The notes under the pieces: model-generated
Told to the model about the DNA's origin: nothing
What the model saw: the letters and a program-made list of their open reading frames with translations, nothing else
Databases searched by the model: none
In this document: piece by piece, positions 3,744 through 22,687 of the stretch
How the letters are laid out: each line of letters begins with the position of its first letter
Numbering within the stretch: position 1 is the first letter of the stretch
Source: a virus
IMG/VR virus record: IMGVR_UViG_3300033075_000869
Direction: 5' to 3' (one strand)
DNA length: 39,573 bases
Translations under genes and position numbers: made by a program

Positions 3744-4304
3744 ATGGACTTGGCTGAGGCACAGAATATTGGCGATAGAATCGTTGATTCATTGTTGAAT
3801 TGTACAGCTCGAGCAGTCGTTGCCGGGTCTGTTCGACGGTGTAAACCCACCGTCAAAGACATTGAAATCGTCGTTATTGTTACTGATTACGATAAGTTGT
3901 TTACGCAGCTGCGGCAACACGGTCGATTTATTAAGCCGGGTGTTCCACAAGTCATTGACTGGCCACCCAAGAAAAATTCGAAATATATTCGAATGTACCT
4001 CAATGAGGGAATTAAGCTTGATTTGTTTGTGGGCTCGAGTGATAACTGGGGAGCCCTCCTGTGTATGCGAACAGGTAGTGGCGTTGGTCCTGATGGGAAT
4101 GTTCACCATGGATTCATACCTGCGATGTTTCGCCGCTGGAAGCGAGTTTCTGGCGGTGGGAAGATGTCCGGTTGCATGCCAACCATGCCCGACGGACTTC
4201 AACTAAACGTTCCTGAAGAACGTGATTATTTTGACTTGTTGGGTGTTCAGTGGGTTGAACCAAACAAGCGAATTTCTAGCTCGGACGTGAAAGGAATCTC
4301 ATGA
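3744..4304 (+). CDS. minimal DNA polymerase X-family nucleotidyltransferase (ASFV PolX-like size)
   Basis: GSVRR...DIEIVVIV (Pol beta NT motif GS..R...D.D), LDLFV, and overall layout like 174-aa minimal PolX. Confidence 0.65.
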   Translation: MDLAEAQNIGDRIVDSLLNCTARAVVAGSVRRCKPTVKDIEIVVIVTDYDKLFTQLRQHGRFIKPGVPQVIDWPPKKNSKYIRMYLNEGIKLDLFVGSSDNWGALLCMRTGSGVGPDGNVHHGFIPAMFRRWKRVSGGGKMSGCMPTMPDGLQLNVPEERDYFDLLGVQWVEPNKRISSSDVKGIS

Positions 4305-6350: not shown

Positions 6351-7382
6351 ATGAACAAAGTCATTGAATCTTGGAAGTGGCCTTCCATTGAAAGTTTTTA
6401 CAACGTTCGTAAAACGATTCAAAAATATGGCGTCGCCGCTGGATCGATTGTTACGTATCGTGCAAAGGTGAAATTGCATGGTGCATGCGCTGCTTTTTCA
6501 ATTGATGGCGATAGTGCCCGTGGTGCTACGCTTCAAACGTATTCTCGAACAGCGATTGTTACACCCGAGAGTGATCCCATGGGATTTTCTAGGTGGATCG
6601 AAAATCGTCGTGATCAATTGTTGTCGTTGCATCAACCTGGAACGAGTATCATTGTATACGGCGAGTGGACCGGTCAAGGTATTCAAAAGGGTGTTGCTGC
6701 GAGTCAAGTCGAACGTTTCTTCGCTGTTTTCGCTGCTCGAGTGTCTCGAGTGGAAGACCCAATGAGTGAGGAATTCATTACTGATCCGGATGAACTTAGG
6801 GTCTACGTTCAGGGTGTTCCGGGTTGTTATGTGTTGCCTTGGTTCAATGACGGTGAAGAATTTGTTGTTCCATGGGAGGCAGATTCTGATTCTTTTGAGA
6901 ATGTTATTTCGAGAATGAACTCTCACGTTGCCGCAATTGAGGCATGTGATCCGTTCGTGTCGAAAACTTTTGGTGTTGCAGGTATCGGCGAAGGTCTCGT
7001 ATTTTATCCAGTGTCAGAACAACATTGTTCATTTGGCGATTTTTCTTATCTCTGCTTCAAGGCAAAGGGTGAGAAACACAAAACGATTGTTCATGCTGCA
7101 CCGGTCCAGGCTGAGCCGACAGTCATTGAAGGTCTTGATGAATTTGTTCGCAATGTGTTGCCGTTGTCTAGGCTCGAACAAGGTGTTCGGGCAACAAACG
7201 ACGGGTCTGACATTGCAATGATGGTCAATTTGGGACCGTTCTTGAAATGGATTGGTCTCGATCTAGAAAAGGAAACCGTGGAAGAGCTACGTGTCTCTGG
7301 TCTTGATCGCAAAGTGGTCTTCAAGAAGTGCAATGAATATGCTCGCAATTGGTTCATGAACGAATCGAGGAAACTGTTATGA
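6351..7382 (+). CDS. RNA ligase, Rnl2 family
   Basis: Motif I KLHG (T4 Rnl2 KIHGTN) and motif IV YGEWTGQGIQKGV (Rnl2 FGEFAGPGIQKNV). Confidence 0.75.
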   Translation: MNKVIESWKWPSIESFYNVRKTIQKYGVAAGSIVTYRAKVKLHGACAAFSIDGDSARGATLQTYSRTAIVTPESDPMGFSRWIENRRDQLLSLHQPGTSIIVYGEWTGQGIQKGVAASQVERFFAVFAARVSRVEDPMSEEFITDPDELRVYVQGVPGCYVLPWFNDGEEFVVPWEADSDSFENVISRMNSHVAAIEACDPFVSKTFGVAGIGEGLVFYPVSEQHCSFGDFSYLCFKAKGEKHKTIVHAAPVQAEPTVIEGLDEFVRNVLPLSRLEQGVRATNDGSDIAMMVNLGPFLKWIGLDLEKETVEELRVSGLDRKVVFKKCNEYARNWFMNESRKLL

Positions 7383-7967: not shown

Positions 7968-8314
7968 AAAAAGGTCTGTATACACCACGTCCTGGAGATC
8001 TGTTCAATTGGCATTATGATCATGATGATTCAAAATGTAAAGATGACGATAAAGTTTGGTCGTCGTCTATGAAATGTTGGGTACTATGCAACGGTATTAA
8101 CATTCTAATCTCACTAACCGAAACTGATATGTGGTGGATTAATAATCAGAGCTTCATCCACGCGCGCGTGGATAAAATTCCGTCGGCCGCCTGGGTAGGC
8201 GTTCCTCGGCGCTGCTTCATCCACGCGCGCGTGGATAAAATGTTTACACCGACTAGTACTCATATCGCCGAGCCTGGCGAGCGAGCTTTGTCTACGCATA
8301 ATGAAATAACATGA
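7964..8314 (+). CDS. family A small paralog with internal 60-bp tandem duplication and aberrant C-terminus (possibly decaying)
   Basis: FIHARVDK is encoded twice by duplicated palindromic DNA. The C-terminus lacks the family's HPR motif. Confidence 0.45.
   Translation: MKKGLYTPRPGDLFNWHYDHDDSKCKDDDKVWSSSMKCWVLCNGINILISLTETDMWWINNQSFIHARVDKIPSAAWVGVPRRCFIHARVDKMFTPTSTHIAEPGERALSTHNEIT
8153..8238. repeat. Tandem direct repeat of TTCATCCACGCGCGCGTGGATAAAAT (2 copies, 34-bp GC-rich spacer), each holding a perfect 18-bp palindrome ATCCACGCGCGCGTGGAT
   Basis: Exact 26-mer at 8153-8178 and 8213-8238. The palindrome is perfect. The segment is locally GC-rich in an AT-rich genome. Confidence 0.7.
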
Positions 8315-9090
8315 CAACCAAAAATCTATTGACTCGCATGAAAGGCTATGAAGAAGCATCAAGGATGATTCTTCCTGGTCGTTCACCTGTTATTCTCCGT
8401 CTCGACGGAAAGTCGTTCTCAACGTATACTCGTTCCCTGGGAACTTTTAATCACTCATTCGCATGGTTGATGAAAGAAACAGCGGTTGCTGTGTGTAAGC
8501 ATATCCAGGGCGCAACGTTCGCTTACACCCAATCTGACGAAATATCAATTTTGATTCACTCTTATAAGAAGCTGAATTCTGAACCGTGGTTTGAAAACTG
8601 TGTTCAGAAGATGGTTTCTGTTTCGTCTTCAATTGCTGCAGTTACATTTACGTTGGGATCACCACAACTTTTTAAGGATGTGTTGGCCGAACCTCGGGCC
8701 GAGGATGCCCGCCCGGCATATTTTGATGCCCGTGTATTTGTCGTTCCAGAAAATGACGTTGTGAATTATTTCGTCTGGCGTCAACAAGATGCAACACGAA
8801 ATGCAATGTCTATGTGGGCTCGTTCACTTTTCTCAGCGAAAGAGATTCATGGGAAAAACTGGCAACAGATGCGTGAGATGTGTGAAACCCGTGGTGTTAA
8901 GTGGGACGCTCTTTCTCCTCAATTTACACGTGGAACCGGAATATCACGCGTCGATGGTCATTGGACAATCGACGATGAAACGCCACTGTTTACTACGAAC
9001 AGGGACTACATCGCTCGGCATCTCGAACTAGAAGAAGGCTTACGTGAAGCTGTATTACGGCCCACGAGATGGCCCACGTATTACCCGTGA
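8311..9090 (+). CDS. Thg1-like protein (tRNA-His guanylyltransferase family, 3'-5' nucleotidyltransferase)
   Basis: RLDGKSFSTYTR and AYTQSDEISIL motifs typical of the Thg1/TLP palm domain; about 260 aa. Confidence 0.7.
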   Translation: MTTKNLLTRMKGYEEASRMILPGRSPVILRLDGKSFSTYTRSLGTFNHSFAWLMKETAVAVCKHIQGATFAYTQSDEISILIHSYKKLNSEPWFENCVQKMVSVSSSIAAVTFTLGSPQLFKDVLAEPRAEDARPAYFDARVFVVPENDVVNYFVWRQQDATRNAMSMWARSLFSAKEIHGKNWQQMREMCETRGVKWDALSPQFTRGTGISRVDGHWTIDDETPLFTTNRDYIARHLELEEGLREAVLRPTRWPTYYP

Positions 9091-14759: not shown

Positions 14760-15153
14760 CGCCAAAAACATTAATGATCGCAAGAAATCAAAGCCAGACA
14801 GAGAGCCTAGATCTCCTAAACCAAAAATCAATATGGAGACTGCGCCTGACGCAATTGTTGATGGTAAACTTGTTGTTCCTGTTGGTACACGAGTTGTTAT
14901 TCCACGTATTCGATCAAATAAGAAGATTCTATCATTTGGTCTCATTGATAGGGTTGAACGTGGCGCTGTGTATGTCTGGGATGAAACTCTAACACAATGG
15001 TTTGTGTTCAAGTTGTCTGATCCTGTTGTTGTGAAAGTATATTCGTTGCCGCTCAAGTCAACTATTGAAGCGACTACAAAACCGGTCGTTGAAGCAGTGT
15101 CTGAAAAACAACTGTCATATGTAATTTCACAAGATGCTTCTTCAGAAACTTGA
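14752..15153 (+). CDS. hypothetical basic protein
   Basis: ORF of 133 aa. It overlaps the convergent protease gene by 80 nt. Confidence 0.45.
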   Translation: MNNAKNINDRKKSKPDREPRSPKPKINMETAPDAIVDGKLVVPVGTRVVIPRIRSNKKILSFGLIDRVERGAVYVWDETLTQWFVFKLSDPVVVKVYSLPLKSTIEATTKPVVEAVSEKQLSYVISQDASSET

Positions 15154-15889
15154 TAAGCTCATCATGATGTATAAAGAATGAAATGTTTGGACCTTGTGGT
15201 GCAACCCAAGAGGCAATTCCAACGAGATTTCCGTCATCATCAAATGCACCGCCACCACTATTACCACGCCATGTTGCAGATGAAATTTGCATTGCATGTG
15301 TAGTGATCTGATCTGGCCCTTTAATACTGCCCCACGAAGTTGAAACAGTACCTTCGCAATATGACCACCATAGGCCAATTGTATGACCTACGATGTGAAC
15401 TCGCGTACCATCTGGTACAGAATCGATTCCTTTTACATTCGCAACTAGGTGACCTCGAGGCGTATCTTTTGCTAGAATCAATGCAAGATCTTGTGTGTGA
15501 CTCACCGCAATAACTGTTCCTCTTCGAACAGATACTGGAAAATTATTTGGTGTTGATAGATTAACATCGCCTTTGACAACATATTGTAGTTCAACACCGA
15601 CGGAATCAAATTCATCAGATTCAATTTCGAATATGCTACCAACAAGTGCTCGACCATACATTTCAACACAGTGATTCGCAGTTAGGATCTTATCATCAGA
15701 AATCCAGACGCCTGTACAATATGGAGAATGATCACCATCACCATCAGTTTTTGTTAGAGCTACAGTTACAGACTTTAGATTTTCAACCAGTGCGACTCGG
15801 CTGGGTTGAACGGGTGGTTGTGTCAATGAACCTTGCATCGCGCAACCAAACAAAACGATTGCCAACAACCACAAGAAAAATTTTTTCAT
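15074..15889 (-). CDS. trypsin-like (S1 family) serine protease, lipoprotein
   Basis: Signal peptide MKKFFLWLLAIVLFGC (lipobox LFGC). Catalytic His in TANHC, Asp in DLALI, Ser in GNSGGGAF. AAGAGG sits 9 nt upstream of the ATG. Confidence 0.8.
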   Translation of the reverse strand: MKKFFLWLLAIVLFGCAMQGSLTQPPVQPSRVALVENLKSVTVALTKTDGDGDHSPYCTGVWISDDKILTANHCVEMYGRALVGSIFEIESDEFDSVGVELQYVVKGDVNLSTPNNFPVSVRRGTVIAVSHTQDLALILAKDTPRGHLVANVKGIDSVPDGTRVHIVGHTIGLWWSYCEGTVSTSWGSIKGPDQITTHAMQISSATWRGNSGGGAFDDDGNLVGIASWVAPQGPNISFFIHHDELIKFLKKHLVKLHMTVVFQTLLQRPVL

Positions 15890-18197: not shown

Positions 18198-19526
18198 ATG
18201 AAAAAACGACGTTACAAAAGTGCGAAGATTAAGTCGGTACCGGGCGCAATTGAAATTGAAAAGTCCTTCCTGACACAGGTCAAAGAGTTGATGAACCTGG
18301 GCCAAGTTAAGAAAACAATTCATGTCGGAACCGAATTGTTTGGTGCTATTTCACCGTTTCTTGACAAACCTGACTGGTGGAACGGTTGTAAAGCCGCGTT
18401 TGCAGTTGGTAAAGTTTTGATTGACGAAGTTGAAATTTGGTCAGATGATTATTTCTCTGGCGAAGAGTGGAGTATGCCATATTCGCGAGATTTTAATCAA
18501 ACGATTCTTTCAGCTATTTCTGGTTACCCGTTTCAAGTTGTTCGAACGAGTGACGAAAATAGTATGATCAAACTTGTTGACCTTGAAGGCATCAAAGTTG
18601 GTTATACTGTTAATACACGCTCTTCGCATATTGACAATATTTTTGTTGAAACTGCAAAGCTAAAAGAGGCGCGCGATCACATCAAAAAGTTGCTTTGGGA
18701 ATCCTTGAAAGATTCAAATATTGTGATGCGTCAAAATAAGCGTATGCTTCTTCAAGAAGAAGAGTCTCGTGTTATTTTTGAATCAGATGATGCATTTCAT
18801 CCGCTAAAGTCTGCTCGAGCAACAGATTATTCTTCTTACTTGAAACGTTGCATTGACGCAAACGTCTCTAGGTCTGTGATGTTGTATGGTCCTCCCGGAA
18901 CTGGTAAGTCGACGATGGCACGAACGATCGTCGACACTTTGAATATGCGTTCGTTCAGAATTCGTGTTGAGGACGTTGCTGGAATCGAAAGTTCGACGCT
19001 TTTTGAAGCTGTTAGCATCTTTGAGCCAGACGCAATCATCTTGGATGATTTTGACCGGGCACATGCGCAGGCCCAATTGCTCGAAACGCTTGAGTTTTTC
19101 CAGCGTCATGTTAAGATTGTTATTGCAACAGTCAATGATCGAAATAGTTTGGATGAAGCTATTCTACGACCTGGTCGATTTGACGAGCTTGTGTTTGTCA
19201 AGCAAATGGACGAAGACGTTGTCAAGCACGTCCTTGGGCCTGCGCTTGAAGATGCATTTGACATTGTCAAAGATTGGCCAATTGCATTCATTCAGGAATA
19301 CGCAAAGAGGCGACGTTTCATGAGCGCTGAAGAGGCGGCGGTTTCTACAGCCGAACTAGCTGATCGAGTTAAGCGTCTTCAAAAATACGATGACTTGTCC
19401 GATGTTGAGCGAATGCTAGCTGCTAGGAAACGTCTTGGTATTGCTACAGAAGACAACGTTGACGACCTAGATGATTCTGACCCAGACCTTGAAGATGGTG
19501 AAACCCCTTTTGTAGAGCCGGCATAA
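18198..19526 (+). CDS. AAA ATPase (classic clade), with a possible -1 frameshift extension to 19750
   Basis: Walker A GPPGTGKST, Walker B IILDDFD and the second region of homology ILRPGRFDELVFV. Confidence 0.85.
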   Translation: MKKRRYKSAKIKSVPGAIEIEKSFLTQVKELMNLGQVKKTIHVGTELFGAISPFLDKPDWWNGCKAAFAVGKVLIDEVEIWSDDYFSGEEWSMPYSRDFNQTILSAISGYPFQVVRTSDENSMIKLVDLEGIKVGYTVNTRSSHIDNIFVETAKLKEARDHIKKLLWESLKDSNIVMRQNKRMLLQEEESRVIFESDDAFHPLKSARATDYSSYLKRCIDANVSRSVMLYGPPGTGKSTMARTIVDTLNMRSFRIRVEDVAGIESSTLFEAVSIFEPDAIILDDFDRAHAQAQLLETLEFFQRHVKIVIATVNDRNSLDEAILRPGRFDELVFVKQMDEDVVKHVLGPALEDAFDIVKDWPIAFIQEYAKRRRFMSAEEAAVSTAELADRVKRLQKYDDLSDVERMLAARKRLGIATEDNVDDLDDSDPDLEDGETPFVEPA

Positions 19527-19537
19527 ATAATGCCGGC
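19505..19537 (+). other. Candidate -1 programmed frameshift cassette: slippery C_CCT_TTT, 5-nt spacer, 8-bp GC hairpin GCCGGCAT-aaata-ATGCCGGC
   Basis: The heptamer sits in the zero frame of the AAA gene. The -1 frame stays open from 19502 to 19750 (83 codons) and ends in an ATGA overlap with uvdE. Confidence 0.35.
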
Positions 19538-19746
19538 GTTGTCCTAACAGAACAACAGAGACGTGTAAGACGTGAAGCTGCATTGCAGTGGGCTGATAAA
19601 ATAACCAAAAAATCAGGTGATATAAGTGTATTTTCACTGAGTGAAAATGGTAAACTAAAGTCAGGTGCACTTGAACGTAAAATTGCCGCAGCAATTAAGG
19701 CTGCGACAAAAATTAATTATTCAACTGTGCCAAAGAAACGGGCAAA

Positions 19747-20682
19747 ATGATTGGTGTTTGTTGTCAGTGGCTTGAGCGTATTAAACGTCCAAGATCTGGT
19801 GATTATCAATATGTGAACGTTGTCGATGAACGTTCACTTCAACTTGGTAGGTACATAGCAGGAAAATATACACCTGAGCAAATTAGTGCTACGTACTTGC
19901 ATAACATCAATAATTTGATACGTATGTTGCCACGAATTTCACGTTCTGGCATACGTTTGTTTCGAATATCTTCTTCGTTGTTTCCCCTCGCTGACAAAGT
20001 TGATCGTGCGCATTGGGATAATGATGCTGTTCGAACACAATTGAAATGTGTTGGTGATATTATTAAGTCACTTCAACTACGTGTTACAACGCATCCTGGC
20101 CAATTTTGTGTTTTGTCGTCAGATTCTGATCGCGTAGTTGAAAATTCATTCAATGAATTGGCGCTTCATGGTTGGATATTTGACGTTATGGGTCTTGATC
20201 GTTCACCACAATATGCTATCAATATTCACGGTGGTAAGTCAGACAGGTCGTCTAGGCTTATTGAACAGATCAAATCTTTGCCACAGTCTGTTTCGTCACG
20301 ATTGACACTTGAAAATGACGAGTCTGCATATTCACTTATTGATTTGTTGACTGTACACAAAGAAACCGGTGTTCCTGTCGTTTGGGATTCGCATCATCAT
20401 ACATTCAATGATGACGGAATTTCTCTTAGCGATGCCTATACATTGTCAAGGCTAACGTGGCCATCTGGCGTTATGCCACTGCAACATATTAGCAATACCG
20501 AGCCGAGTTCAAGTGATGGTTCATTTACAGAACGTCGTAAACACAGTAATATGATTCATTATATTCCGGATGCTCAACTTCAAGGTCTGCGTGATGGCAA
20601 CGTTGCGTGTGAAATTGAGGCAAAAATGAAAAATATCGCTGTTGACCATATGGTTAATATCTTTGGTCTGACACGATTATAA
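19747..20682 (+). CDS. uvdE: UV damage endonuclease (UvdE)
   Basis: TTHPGQFCVLSS, INIHGG, RLTLENDE and VVWDSHHH match the UvdE TIM-barrel signature. Confidence 0.75.
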   Translation: MIGVCCQWLERIKRPRSGDYQYVNVVDERSLQLGRYIAGKYTPEQISATYLHNINNLIRMLPRISRSGIRLFRISSSLFPLADKVDRAHWDNDAVRTQLKCVGDIIKSLQLRVTTHPGQFCVLSSDSDRVVENSFNELALHGWIFDVMGLDRSPQYAINIHGGKSDRSSRLIEQIKSLPQSVSSRLTLENDESAYSLIDLLTVHKETGVPVVWDSHHHTFNDDGISLSDAYTLSRLTWPSGVMPLQHISNTEPSSSDGSFTERRKHSNMIHYIPDAQLQGLRDGNVACEIEAKMKNIAVDHMVNIFGLTRL

Positions 20683-20703: not shown

Positions 20704-20988
20704 ATGCTTAAGCCGATTGTGACAAAACTTATGAAGACCAAGACATCTTCGATACATGAGAGTACTGCATATCAATTGCATAAGTCACAAATGACAATTT
20801 TTTCTGGTATCATGCATAAGGTTATTGATTTTACCGAACATAAACTACGACAATATGCAGAATCTGTTGATGATCAACAACAAAAAACTATTTTGATTGA
20901 CCTGATTAAGAAATATAAAAAAGGGCAAGTTGTAATTGCCTGGCGTGCTGGGCGACCAATTTGGCTGCCCGTTACAAAAGAAATTTGA
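20704..20988 (+). CDS. hypothetical 94-aa protein directly upstream of groEL (possible co-chaperonin analog)
   Basis: Position and size are like GroES or T4 gp31. Weak resemblance MLKPIVTKL / KKGQVVIAW to GroES IRPLHDRV / KVGDIVIF. Confidence 0.45.
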   Translation: MLKPIVTKLMKTKTSSIHESTAYQLHKSQMTIFSGIMHKVIDFTEHKLRQYAESVDDQQQKTILIDLIKKYKKGQVVIAWRAGRPIWLPVTKEI

Positions 20989-21025: not shown

Positions 21026-22687
21026 ATGTTTAATGACATTGACGTTCCCAATACAACAAAAGTACTATTTCATAATGAAGCTAGAAGAAAATTGTATGTT
21101 GGACTTTGTGTTGCTGCTGAAGCAGTTACATGTACACTTGGACCACGTGGTCGAACAGTGCTAATTCAAAGCAAGGGCGGTCCACCAACTGTGACCAAGG
21201 ACGGTGTTACAGTTATTAAGTCAATTAGGCTCAAAGATCCTATTGAAAAAATGGGTGCTGAACTAATACGAGAAGCAGCGTCACAAACCAATGAAGTGGC
21301 TGGTGATGGGACTACAACGGCTACGGTTCTGACCCACTCGATGGTCAAGGAAGGCCTCAAACTATTGGAAGCTGGGTATTCTGCCAAGGAGTTGTGCGAG
21401 GGTATTCAATGGGCTCGAGAGTTGGTTGATAACGAACTAAAGAAATCTGCACGTGTTTTGAACACTTCAGCTGAAATTGCTCAGGTAGGAACTATCAGTG
21501 CGAACGGTGATACGAAAATTGGTGAATTGATCGCTGAAGCAATGGAAAAAGTTGGCCGTGACGGTATCATTACCGTTGAAGACGCAAAAGGAATGGCAAC
21601 GACCCTTGAAGTTGTAGAAGGTATGCAATTTGAACGTGGGTATATGAGCCCATATTTTGTAACCAATCCAGAACGAATGAATGTTTCATATCAAGAAGCA
21701 CTAGTTCTTGTAACTGACAAGAAACTATCTGGATTGCGAGAGCTAGTTCCAGTTCTAGAAAAGGTTGCAGGTTCGCGTAAACCGTTGCTCATTATTGCAG
21801 ATGACGTTGAAGGTGAAGCACTTCAGGGTTTGGTCATCAACCGTGTTAACGGTAATCTACCGCTAGTTGCCGTGAAAGCACCGGGATATGGTAAACATCG
21901 TGACGAGTTGCTAGCCGATATTTGTACATTGACAGGTGCTAAACTAGTTTCGTCTTCAACTGGCGTTAAGTTTGATACGTTGACACTAGCTGATTTGGGT
22001 GTTGTAAAACGCCTGGTTGTTGATGCGAAGTCAACAACCCTTGTGGGCTCAGGTGCAACCAAATCGAAAATTGATGAACATGTTGCAAATTTGCGCACTC
22101 AACTAGAAGATGTTACTATTTCCACAGAAGAAGTTGTGAAGCTAAAGACGAGAATCGCGAAGCTGGCGTCGGGTGTTGCGGTCATTCGTGTCGGCGGTGC
22201 AACAGAAGTTGAAATGATTGAGCGTAAATACCGTATTGAAGACGCACTAAATGCAACACGAGCAGCCGCAGAAGAAGGCATTGTAAAGGGCGGTGGAATG
22301 GCACTTGTTGATGCGTATCATAGTCTTGCGTCAACCCTTGCTGGTCTTTCATCTAATACAACTGTGCTAGCAGGTGCAAATATTGTTATGGCGGCTTGTC
22401 TTGCACCACTTAGCAAGATTGCGGCAAATGCCGGGAAGACGCCTGAAGTCATTCTAGAACGTGTTGATTCTGGACGCTTCCTATCTGATATTCAATACCG
22501 CGGTTGGGATGCTTCGTCTGGAAAAGACGTGGATATGTTCCAGGCAGGGATTATCGATCCTGTTAAGGTTACACGTACAGCTCTTAAAAATGCTGCATCT
22601 GTTGCAATTACGTTTCTAACACTTGATGCAGTTGTAGTTGAAGAACAATCGTCTAACAAAGAAGATAATCTTGAAAAACACGCCTGA
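21026..22687 (+). CDS. groEL: chaperonin GroEL
   Basis: Full-length collinear match to GroEL: [45 protein letters not shown] and others. Confidence 0.95.

Follow-up and report, generated by a model that had tools for sequence, protein, structure and literature searches.

The window analysed here is the whole of a 39,573 nucleotide (nt) stretch of viral DNA, IMG/VR virus record IMGVR_UViG_3300033075_000869. Its plus strand carries a gene for an AAA ATPase, and the 3′ end of this gene contains a candidate cassette for −1 programmed ribosomal frameshifting, i.e., a slippery heptamer followed by a short spacer and a hairpin, with a −1 frame that stays open past the zero-frame stop codon. The cassette and the gene that contains it have the following features.

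18198..19526, plus strand: zero-frame open reading frame (ORF) of the AAA ATPase, 442 amino acids (aa), from the ORF list and with a match to PF00004
19492..19500, plus strand: weak Shine-Dalgarno-like (SD-like) stretch AAGATGGTG, 4 nt 5′ of the heptamer
19499..19501, plus strand: TGA, the last upstream stop codon of the −1 frame, two codons before the heptamer
19505..19511, plus strand: slippery heptamer C_CCU_UUU, in X_XXY_YYZ phase with ORF 18198-19526
19505..19750, plus strand: −1 frame coding region, read out after slippage as PF, then CRAGINNAGVVLTEQQRRVRREAALQWADKITKKSGDISVFSLSENGKLKSGALERKIAAAIKAATKINYSTVPKKRAK, then stop
19512..19516, plus strand: spacer GUAGA, 5 nt
19517..19537, plus strand: hairpin of 8 base pairs (bp), RNA arms GCCGGCAU-AAAUA-AUGCCGGC, the probable 3′ stimulator in this genome
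19524..19526, plus strand: zero-frame stop codon TAA, within the hairpin

The translated aa sequence of 18198-19526 displays a Pfam match to PF00004 (classic AAA, E 1.4e-16), and the AAA domain occupies residues about 220-340 of the 442-aa protein. The best PDB matches are Cdc48/p97, VAT, PAN and FtsH, and not clamp loaders; by these matches the window ATPase is a classic-clade, Cdc48/p97/VAT/FtsH-like AAA protein. Its zero-frame C-terminal end is acidic and terminates in DLEDGETPFVEPA, with 12 D+E and 0 K+R in the last 30 aa. The terminal codons are GAA ACC CCT TTT GTA GAG CCG GCA TAA. A preliminary description of this DNA had placed an in-phase C_CCT_TTT at 19505-19511, and this is borne out by the codon phasing of the ORF.

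In-phase X_XXY_YYZ heptamers are common, with 47 present in the window ORFs of at least 100 aa. This number lends something to an explanation by chance or as a leftover, in which the heptamer would do no more than specify a Pro-Phe/Leu conserved in the acidic tail, the ORF beyond it would have no coding function or be in decay, and the hairpin would serve mRNA stability or termination. We regard this explanation as very improbable. Only one of the 47 heptamers, the C_CCT_TTT at 19505-19511, has both a −1 ORF of at least 50 codons and a downstream hairpin of −10 kcal/mol or below, and no other in-phase CCCTTTN occurs among the about 9,900 codons that make up the window ORFs.

The hairpin at 19517-19537 consists of the stem GCCGGCAT/ATGCCGGC (19517-19524/19530-19537) and the loop AAATA, and 6 of its 8 bp are G-C. 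Its predicted stability is −15.7 kcal/mol with a z score of −4.1; none of 200 shuffled sequences is as stable (0/200), and the value exceeds that of 99.8% of the 45-nt windows along the 39.5-kb window. The 5-nt spacer and the 8-bp hairpin enclosing the TAA, both part of the preliminary description, hold up in their coordinates and in the fold. The stretch AAGATGGTG at 19492-19500 scores −4.5 kcal/mol against the anti-SD sequence, and 8% of gene positions score equally well; it is a possible 5′ stimulator, but an uncertain one.

The hairpin was also considered as an intrinsic terminator. The stem is followed by GUUGUCCUAAC, without a U-tract, and a terminator scan of the plus strand makes no call; this reading was rejected because the U-tract is lacking. 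Rfam gave zero family matches across 19350-19800.

From 19502 the −1 frame stays open over 82 codons, until the TGA at 19748-19750. It opens two codons before the slip site, therefore there is no room for an upstream start. Slippage after Phe438 would add 79 residues and give a 517-aa product. The earlier statement that the −1 frame is open to 19750 is thus correct, with the exception of the count of 80 more codons, since a slip after Phe adds 79 residues. The 79-residue tail is strongly biased toward basic residues (18 K+R vs 6 D+E, pI 10.6), and the predicted trans-frame junction peptide is LGIATEDNVDDLDDSDPDLEDGETPFCR. AlphaFold models the window tail as a helix, a beta-hairpin and a second helix, with a mean predicted local distance difference test score (pLDDT) of 64, i.e., low confidence.

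A 10-bp inverted repeat, TTGCCGCAGC...GCTGCGACAA, is found at 19683-19709 within the tail coding region, over residues IAAAIKAAT. It is flagged as terminator-like on the minus strand and is probably a by-product of Ala codons.

Conservation of the slip site and of the −1 frame

The GenBank phage collection has no close relative of this DNA by megablast or tblastn; the AAA matches in GenBank phages show only 29-33% identity over the P-loop domain, and the tail peptide has no match there. In uncultured phage contigs, which are up to 369 kb in length, the AAA family comprises 422 proteins at E < 1e-30. The DNA of 34 family members was obtained from IMG/VR, from Joint Genome Institute (JGI) metagenomes and through exact-protein look-ups, and a scan of JGI metagenomes, in which most matches were to the generic P-loop pattern, yielded at least 8 true relatives. 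Loci of relatives are given here by L numbers and individual proteins by P numbers.

The N-terminal region is variable in the AAA family. Protein matches are 619-714 aa in length, and P0006 has Fpg/Nei-type Pfam domains. In L001/L002 (L004 equals L001, 2458-3000) the AAA frame is open for ~180 extra codons upstream, which include a Cys-rich CxxC...CxxC.

An in-phase xxC CCT TTN is present 2-15 codons before the AAA stop in 19 distinct relatives. The sequence xxC CCT TT[T/C/A] is carried by L004/5, L007/9, L010, L011, L013, L014, L015, L023 and L091, and further by L094, L095, L096, L097, L098, L099, L100, L101/2 and L103. These carriers have AAA identities of about 50-95% and a GC content of 40-66%, and they fall in two deep clades of the family that share only ~50% AAA identity. 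Among the relatives found purely by AAA-core similarity, at 45% identity or more, 8 of 19 distinct ones carry xxC CCT TTN.

Important is the choice of codons at the site. The codon before Pro is ACC, GCC, GGC, GAC or GTC, with a wobble C throughout, even where GAT/GGT dominate. The Pro codon is invariably CCT, though CCT represents 13-36% of the Pro codons in these loci, and the codon after Pro is TTT, TTC or TTA (Phe or Leu), TTA being used in genomes with 56-61% GC as well. For the amino acids encoded, the joint probability of such codon choices is about 1e-20 (17 sequences). In 44,445 ORF codons of those loci there are 15 in-phase CCCTTTN, essentially the sites themselves (about one other). 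The tail sequence flanking the slip site is otherwise unalignable, and the three consecutive codons are fixed in bases, not in residues. Thus a conserved Pro-Phe motif cannot explain the pattern, and a need for CCC-UUU once the frame has moved by −1 accounts for it.

Two homopolymer runs adjoin at the site (C4T4), with T6 in L091 and L094, and a change of frame at the nucleic-acid level, through transcriptional slippage or through a sequencing or homopolymer error, must be weighed. In bacteria, productive transcriptional slippage requires about 9 A/T in a run (Atkins et al., PMC5009743), for which T4 is far too short. The same frame relation is also seen in assemblies that are independent and come from different technologies; assembly error is excluded because this relation recurs in many of them. 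An origin of the frame change at this level is therefore extremely improbable.

Nearly all of the 19 distinct relatives combine the slip site with a −1 ORF of 50-115 codons, strongly basic in its product (pI 9.9-11.8), so that a check of related genomes for the heptamer and the open −1 frame, named in the preliminary description, found both. Homologous −1 tails in the window, L101, L103, L091 and L093 display the motifs ...W-A-x-K...ISV[FY]xL...DGKLKxG...RxxEAAxKA... The window and L101, its nearest relative, are the only informative pair for substitution analysis; whole-tail counts by codon position among the 84-90% relatives are saturated (32/27/33). Between the window and L101 the ratio of nonsynonymous to synonymous substitution rates (dN/dS) is 0.26 in the −1 frame, whereas the two remaining frames give 0.58 and 1.21, and the tail differences are distributed 6/4/11 over the codon positions. 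All three changes within the overlap are synonymous for the AAA frame, and just past the TAA, upstream of every candidate start, 5 synonymous codon changes and 1 non-synonymous change are found in the −1 frame (both by inspection). The constraint is weaker on the tail than on the ATPase, where omega is 0.05-0.08. By these substitution patterns the −1 frame is under purifying selection, and the synonymous constraint that had been put forward as the key check was found.

These data also bear on chance. In favour of a chance origin, the tail has a low-complexity sequence with little conservation, the hairpin is not a conserved element either, and the −1 ORF of L097 is truncated. However a chance origin does not account for a codon choice that is invariant at three consecutive codons across GC 40-66%, for open −1 frames of 50-115 codons that recur in about 18 independent assemblies, or for the lowest dN/dS being in the −1 frame, and it is also opposed by the lack of a U-tract, of a terminator call and of an Rfam match for the hairpin.

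A different explanation is that the −1 ORF is an independent gene for a basic protein of 55-80 aa. Its translation would begin either at a separate start (TTG 19583) or through termination-reinitiation at the AAA stop, where a near-cognate AUA (19523-25) overlapping the TAA is one candidate, and CCCTTT would be kept for some other reason. The start candidate in the window is

19583..19585, plus strand: TTG, early start candidate in the −1 frame, at which JGI calls a 55-aa gene, P0122

This TTG is the only canonical start in the −1 frame ahead of codon 74 and lies 19 codons past the TAA. No SD-like sequence is seen before it, and the homologous codon is ATT in L091 and CTT/TTT in L093. Based on the alignment it was judged not to be the conserved start. 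It should also be noted that the preliminary description reported a gap without an ATG-initiated ORF, which agrees with the ORF list, where no ATG-started ORF of at least 30 aa is found in this gap.

Several observations are what a separate gene would lead one to expect. Gene callers annotate P0121-P0125 (38-61 aa), start and stop codons overlap as GTGA in L016/L003 and as TTGA in L007/L023, a GGAGG is located 11 nt before the L007 TTG, and the full heptamer is missing from L093. However the starts called for the tail ORFs P0121-P0125 of the window clade are TTG, GTG, ATG, ATG and GTG, all at different alignment columns; they differ in every relative, are at non-homologous columns inside or past conserved sequence, and have only synonymous drift upstream of them. 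In L010 the first ATG/GTG/TTG of the −1 ORF is codon 29 of 50, and in L014 it is codon 37 of 58. Both are downstream of a W...KKQLKKRKR block common to these two loci and L011, and a start-dependent product would lose this conserved block. In the window, L014, L095, L096 and L103 the −1 frame opens at the heptamer or at most 2 codons from it, therefore there is no space for an upstream start. An independent gene also leaves unexplained the conservation of xxC CCT TTN at the base level in the AAA phase and the position of the L093 hairpin, which tracks the slip codon (see below), and in the window there is neither an SD before TTG 19583 nor a start near the TAA. An independent gene with its own TTG or GTG start, which had been named beforehand as an alternative, is thus not borne out, the starts being at non-homologous positions past conserved, synonymously evolving sequence, and we consider it unlikely.

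From the conservation and the coding constraint taken together, the cassette quite probably represents a canonical tandem-slippage −1 programmed ribosomal frameshift at C_CCU_UUU near the 3′ end of a phage Cdc48/VAT-like AAA gene.

Stimulators, in-frame tails and exceptions among relatives

The −1 frameshift cassette of the preliminary description is supported, with the qualification that the hairpin is not a feature of the whole family. L101 keeps the window hairpin at −8.9 kcal/mol; one G-C pair is replaced by A-U through a compensatory change, and the stem also contains a G-U pair and an A.C mismatch. L103 has a 7-bp hairpin 10 nt downstream of the slip site. L091 displays no downstream structure, and its slip site is lengthened to C_CCT_TTT_TTG; a doubled site, C_CCT_TTT_TTR, without a hairpin is common to L091 and L094. 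In L093 the heptamer is broken (C_CCT_ATG) and the C_CC.U tetramer is kept. Here a 12-bp hairpin at 3784-3819 (−18.1 kcal/mol, z −7.3) encloses the AAA stop and begins exactly 5 nt past CCU, which is the position expected if CCU is the A-site codon that slips. The 12-bp hairpin of L093 appears, from its position and predicted fold, to compensate for the weak slip site by stimulator strength. Across the whole family, a stable structure follows about half of the sites after a spacer of 4-6 nt, as is seen in the window, L096, L013, L023, L099 and L098. L096 has a perfect 10-bp hairpin and a 57-codon −1 ORF.

Reporter assays in E. coli provide a background for these variants. Heptamers of the type H_HH.U_UU.Y, including C_CC.U_UU.Y, are among the most efficient, C_CC.U_UU.A/G/U shows more than 0.1% shifting without any stimulator, and C_CC.U belongs to a group of six tetramers with a response to a strong pseudoknot (Sharma et al. 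2014, PMC4066793).

GGAGG/GAGG SD-like stretches are frequent in relatives 4-11 nt upstream of the slip site and are much stronger than that of the window, with a median rank of 0.05 as compared to positions in the same gene. This enrichment is weak evidence because the coding sequence of the acidic/Gly-rich tail is GA-rich anyway. Most window genes have poor SD sequences.

Where the heptamer is lacking, the AAA proteins of the family mostly have a basic tail encoded in the zero frame (L021, L024, L025, L012, L006 and about 40 of the 120 best protein matches), and family outgroups also have a zero-frame basic tail. The −1 tail of L011 and the in-frame tail of P0030 are 33% identical over 60 aa by BLASTP, with E 3e-5 in the pairwise comparison and 0.003 against a 129-protein set; as controls, the +1 frame and the reversed −1 frame give no matches. 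The −1 tail of L094 weakly matches the in-frame tail of P0018. Homology of −1 and in-frame tails is, at the sequence level, only partly demonstrable, the support consisting of two weak pairwise phmmer matches and the one BLASTP pair (L011 vs P0030). A search with the clade-A tail alignment against 5.8 billion proteins found nothing, and the profile of the window-clade tail matched only the called ORFs P0121-P0125 and unrelated repeat proteins that share a beta-hairpin-like motif.

A number of observations weigh against the frameshift interpretation. The 3′ hairpin is specific to the window and its nearest relative and is not conserved family-wide, and several relatives, e.g., L091, L014 and L097, are without downstream structure. 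The enrichment in SD-like sequences may reflect an Asp/Glu/Gly-rich composition. The tail evolves fast, with 45% identity where the ATPase has 90%. In the comparison of −1 and in-frame tails, a hidden Markov model profile test of homology performed no better than shuffled or reversed controls, and searches of 1.8-5.8 billion proteins gave no AAA protein fused to a tail homologous to that of the window. L016/L003 are without the heptamer and have a GTG that overlaps the AAA stop (GTGA); judging from this arrangement, one lineage at least could make the tail as a protein of its own. L007 and L023 have a TTG overlapping the TGA right after the heptamer. L097 (2826-2852), a sister of L096, keeps C_CCT_TTA with a −1 ORF of only 12 codons, which may be a recent tail loss or an assembly indel. 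L017 and L022 have no tail whatsoever. From the exceptions L016/L003, L007, L023, L097, L017 and L022 it follows that the tail is dispensable or separable in some lineages.

The uvdE overlap and neighbouring genes

The −1 frame of the window ends at the gene downstream of the AAA gene.

19747..20682, plus strand: uvdE (UV damage endonuclease), Pfam UvdE E 6e-54

The uvdE ATG overlaps the TGA of the −1 ORF as ATGA (19747-19750), as had been described before, and the same overlap is found in L091, L093 and L101. No SD sequence is evident for uvdE. In view of this and of the ATGA overlap, uvdE translation may be coupled to the frameshifted ribosomes.

The slip site is located between an ADP-ribosylglycohydrolase gene and uvdE/groEL, with no adjacent tail genes. 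The gene order ADP-ribosylglycohydrolase, AAA, (uvdE), a conserved ~94-aa ORF and a GroEL-like chaperonin is widely kept. The ~94-aa ORF (20704-20988 in the window) is directly upstream of the GroEL-like gene in every relative examined, including L001 (6557-6880), L003 (5675-6109), L017 (4204-4485) and L022 (3805-4095). It has the motifs EFQLHKSQ...DFTEHKL...AWRxGxPxxLPVTK and no Pfam match, and could be a phage-specific co-chaperonin or chaperonin partner.

A trypsin-like protease (15074-15889, minus strand), the Cdc48-like AAA (18198-19526) and the GroEL-like chaperonin (21026-22687) are found within 8 kb, and this trio recurs in L091, L096 and L097. Together these three genes resemble a proteostasis module of a phage. 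Elsewhere in the window, genes for an RNA ligase (phrog_548) and a Thg1-like tRNA-His guanylyltransferase (phrog_4717, E 2e-69) are close together at 6351-7382 and 8311-9090, a pair that suggests a tRNA repair function. The region 33000-35000 has a GC content of 49-51% vs about 40% elsewhere and is inside an 868-aa minus-strand ORF (32914-35520) without a PHROG match.

Proposed mechanism, comparison with known systems and meaning

In the proposed mechanism, most ribosomes would read ACC CCU UUU GUA GAG CCG GCA UAA and produce the acidic-ended 442-aa protein as the major product. A fraction would pause while CCU occupies the P site and UUU the A site, and the 8-bp hairpin, 5 nt beyond the heptamer, would promote this. 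The tRNA-Pro would then re-pair from CCU to CCC and the tRNA-Phe from UUU to UUU, and translation in the −1 frame would go on for 79 codons to give a minor 517-aa isoform with a basic tail. Both isoforms would contain the whole ATPase and would co-assemble, as do tau and gamma of dnaX. Ribosomes that have shifted may, in the window clade, go on to translate uvdE as well via the ATGA. The data show the anatomy of the cassette, the base-level conservation of the slip site, the coding constraint on the −1 frame and the absence of a conserved start, and from these we infer the slippage itself, its efficiency and the co-assembly of isoforms. As a guess, the basic tail binds nucleic acid or an acidic partner.

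The closest analogy is dnaX (tau/gamma). It is likewise an AAA+ gene in which a −1 shift on an X_XXY_YYZ heptamer gives two products with a common ATPase body and different C-terminal ends, with a 3′ stem-loop about 5-6 nt away and often a 5′ SD-like sequence. Some bacterial dnaX genes are “reversed”, i.e., the zero-frame stop directly follows the shift site and the long product needs the shift (PMC5009743); L007 and L023 share this layout, with C CCT TTT TGA. In contrast, the window ATPase is not a clamp loader of the DnaX/RFC clade but a Cdc48/VAT/FtsH-like AAA, and its cassette is an analogy to dnaX and not a member of that system because the ATPase is in the Cdc48/FtsH clade. The signals are also different: dnaX has A_AAA_AAG, preceded by an SD at 10 nt and followed by a stem-loop at 6 nt, whereas the window has C_CCU_UUU, a weak SD-like element and a stem-loop. 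In addition, the shift in the window is at the extreme 3′ end, where it adds a short basic tail and removes no domains.

Similarities to other systems are more partial. Lambda G/GT and T7 gene 10A/10B are also phage genes in which a minority −1 shift near the 3′ end of an ORF gives a C-terminally extended fusion (PMC5009743), and there too distant phages retain the shift while their sequences change. However they belong to other gene families, and their heptamers are G_GGA_AAG in lambda and of the G_GU U_UUC type in T7. The tail assembly chaperone site G/GT is between the tail tube and tape-measure genes, whereas the neighbours in the window are ADP-ribosylglycohydrolase, UvdE and GroEL. The flavivirus NS1′ site (Japanese encephalitis and West Nile viruses, JEV/WNV) has the identical CCCUUUU heptamer and a 4-5 nt spacer to its stimulator (PMC3835772), but it functions on eukaryotic ribosomes, with a pseudoknot as stimulator, in an RNA virus and in an unrelated protein. 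The motifs of the IS3/IS911 type (IS, insertion sequence) include heptamer and tetramer variants that match those of the window vs L093 (Sharma et al. 2014, PMC4066793); these were reporter constructs with IS stimulators, and none was from this AAA family.

No description of frameshifting in this phage AAA family was found in the literature, and we judge the cassette to be a genuine and previously undescribed case of ordinary −1 programmed frameshifting. To our knowledge, few conserved −1 frameshift sites are documented in bacteria and phages beyond those of tail chaperones, capsid genes, transposases and dnaX.

A wider proposal, possible but decidedly tentative, is that a deeply conserved recoding signal sets the ratio of tail-less, acidic-ended to tail-bearing, basic-ended subunits in a Cdc48-like unfoldase hexamer, itself part of a jumbo-phage proteostasis module (protease, AAA, chaperonin). 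Lineages would tune the ratio by the slip site (heptamer, doubled heptamer or tetramer) vs the strength of the stimulator, or would fuse the tail in frame, and the window clade would also gate uvdE through the ATGA.

If the frameshift takes place, the phage AAA gene would provide, independently of dnaX, a second example of recoding that determines the subunit composition of an AAA+ machine. The family would provide a natural series of variants for the trade-off between slip site and stimulator, i.e., a heptamer with a hairpin, a doubled heptamer without a hairpin, a tetramer with a very strong hairpin, and an in-frame fusion. The annotation of large uncultured phage genomes would be corrected in hundreds of cases, the tail being now represented by orphan ORFs of 38-61 aa or missed, and the basic tail would be flagged as a functional part of a phage unfoldase that is always found beside a phage chaperonin.

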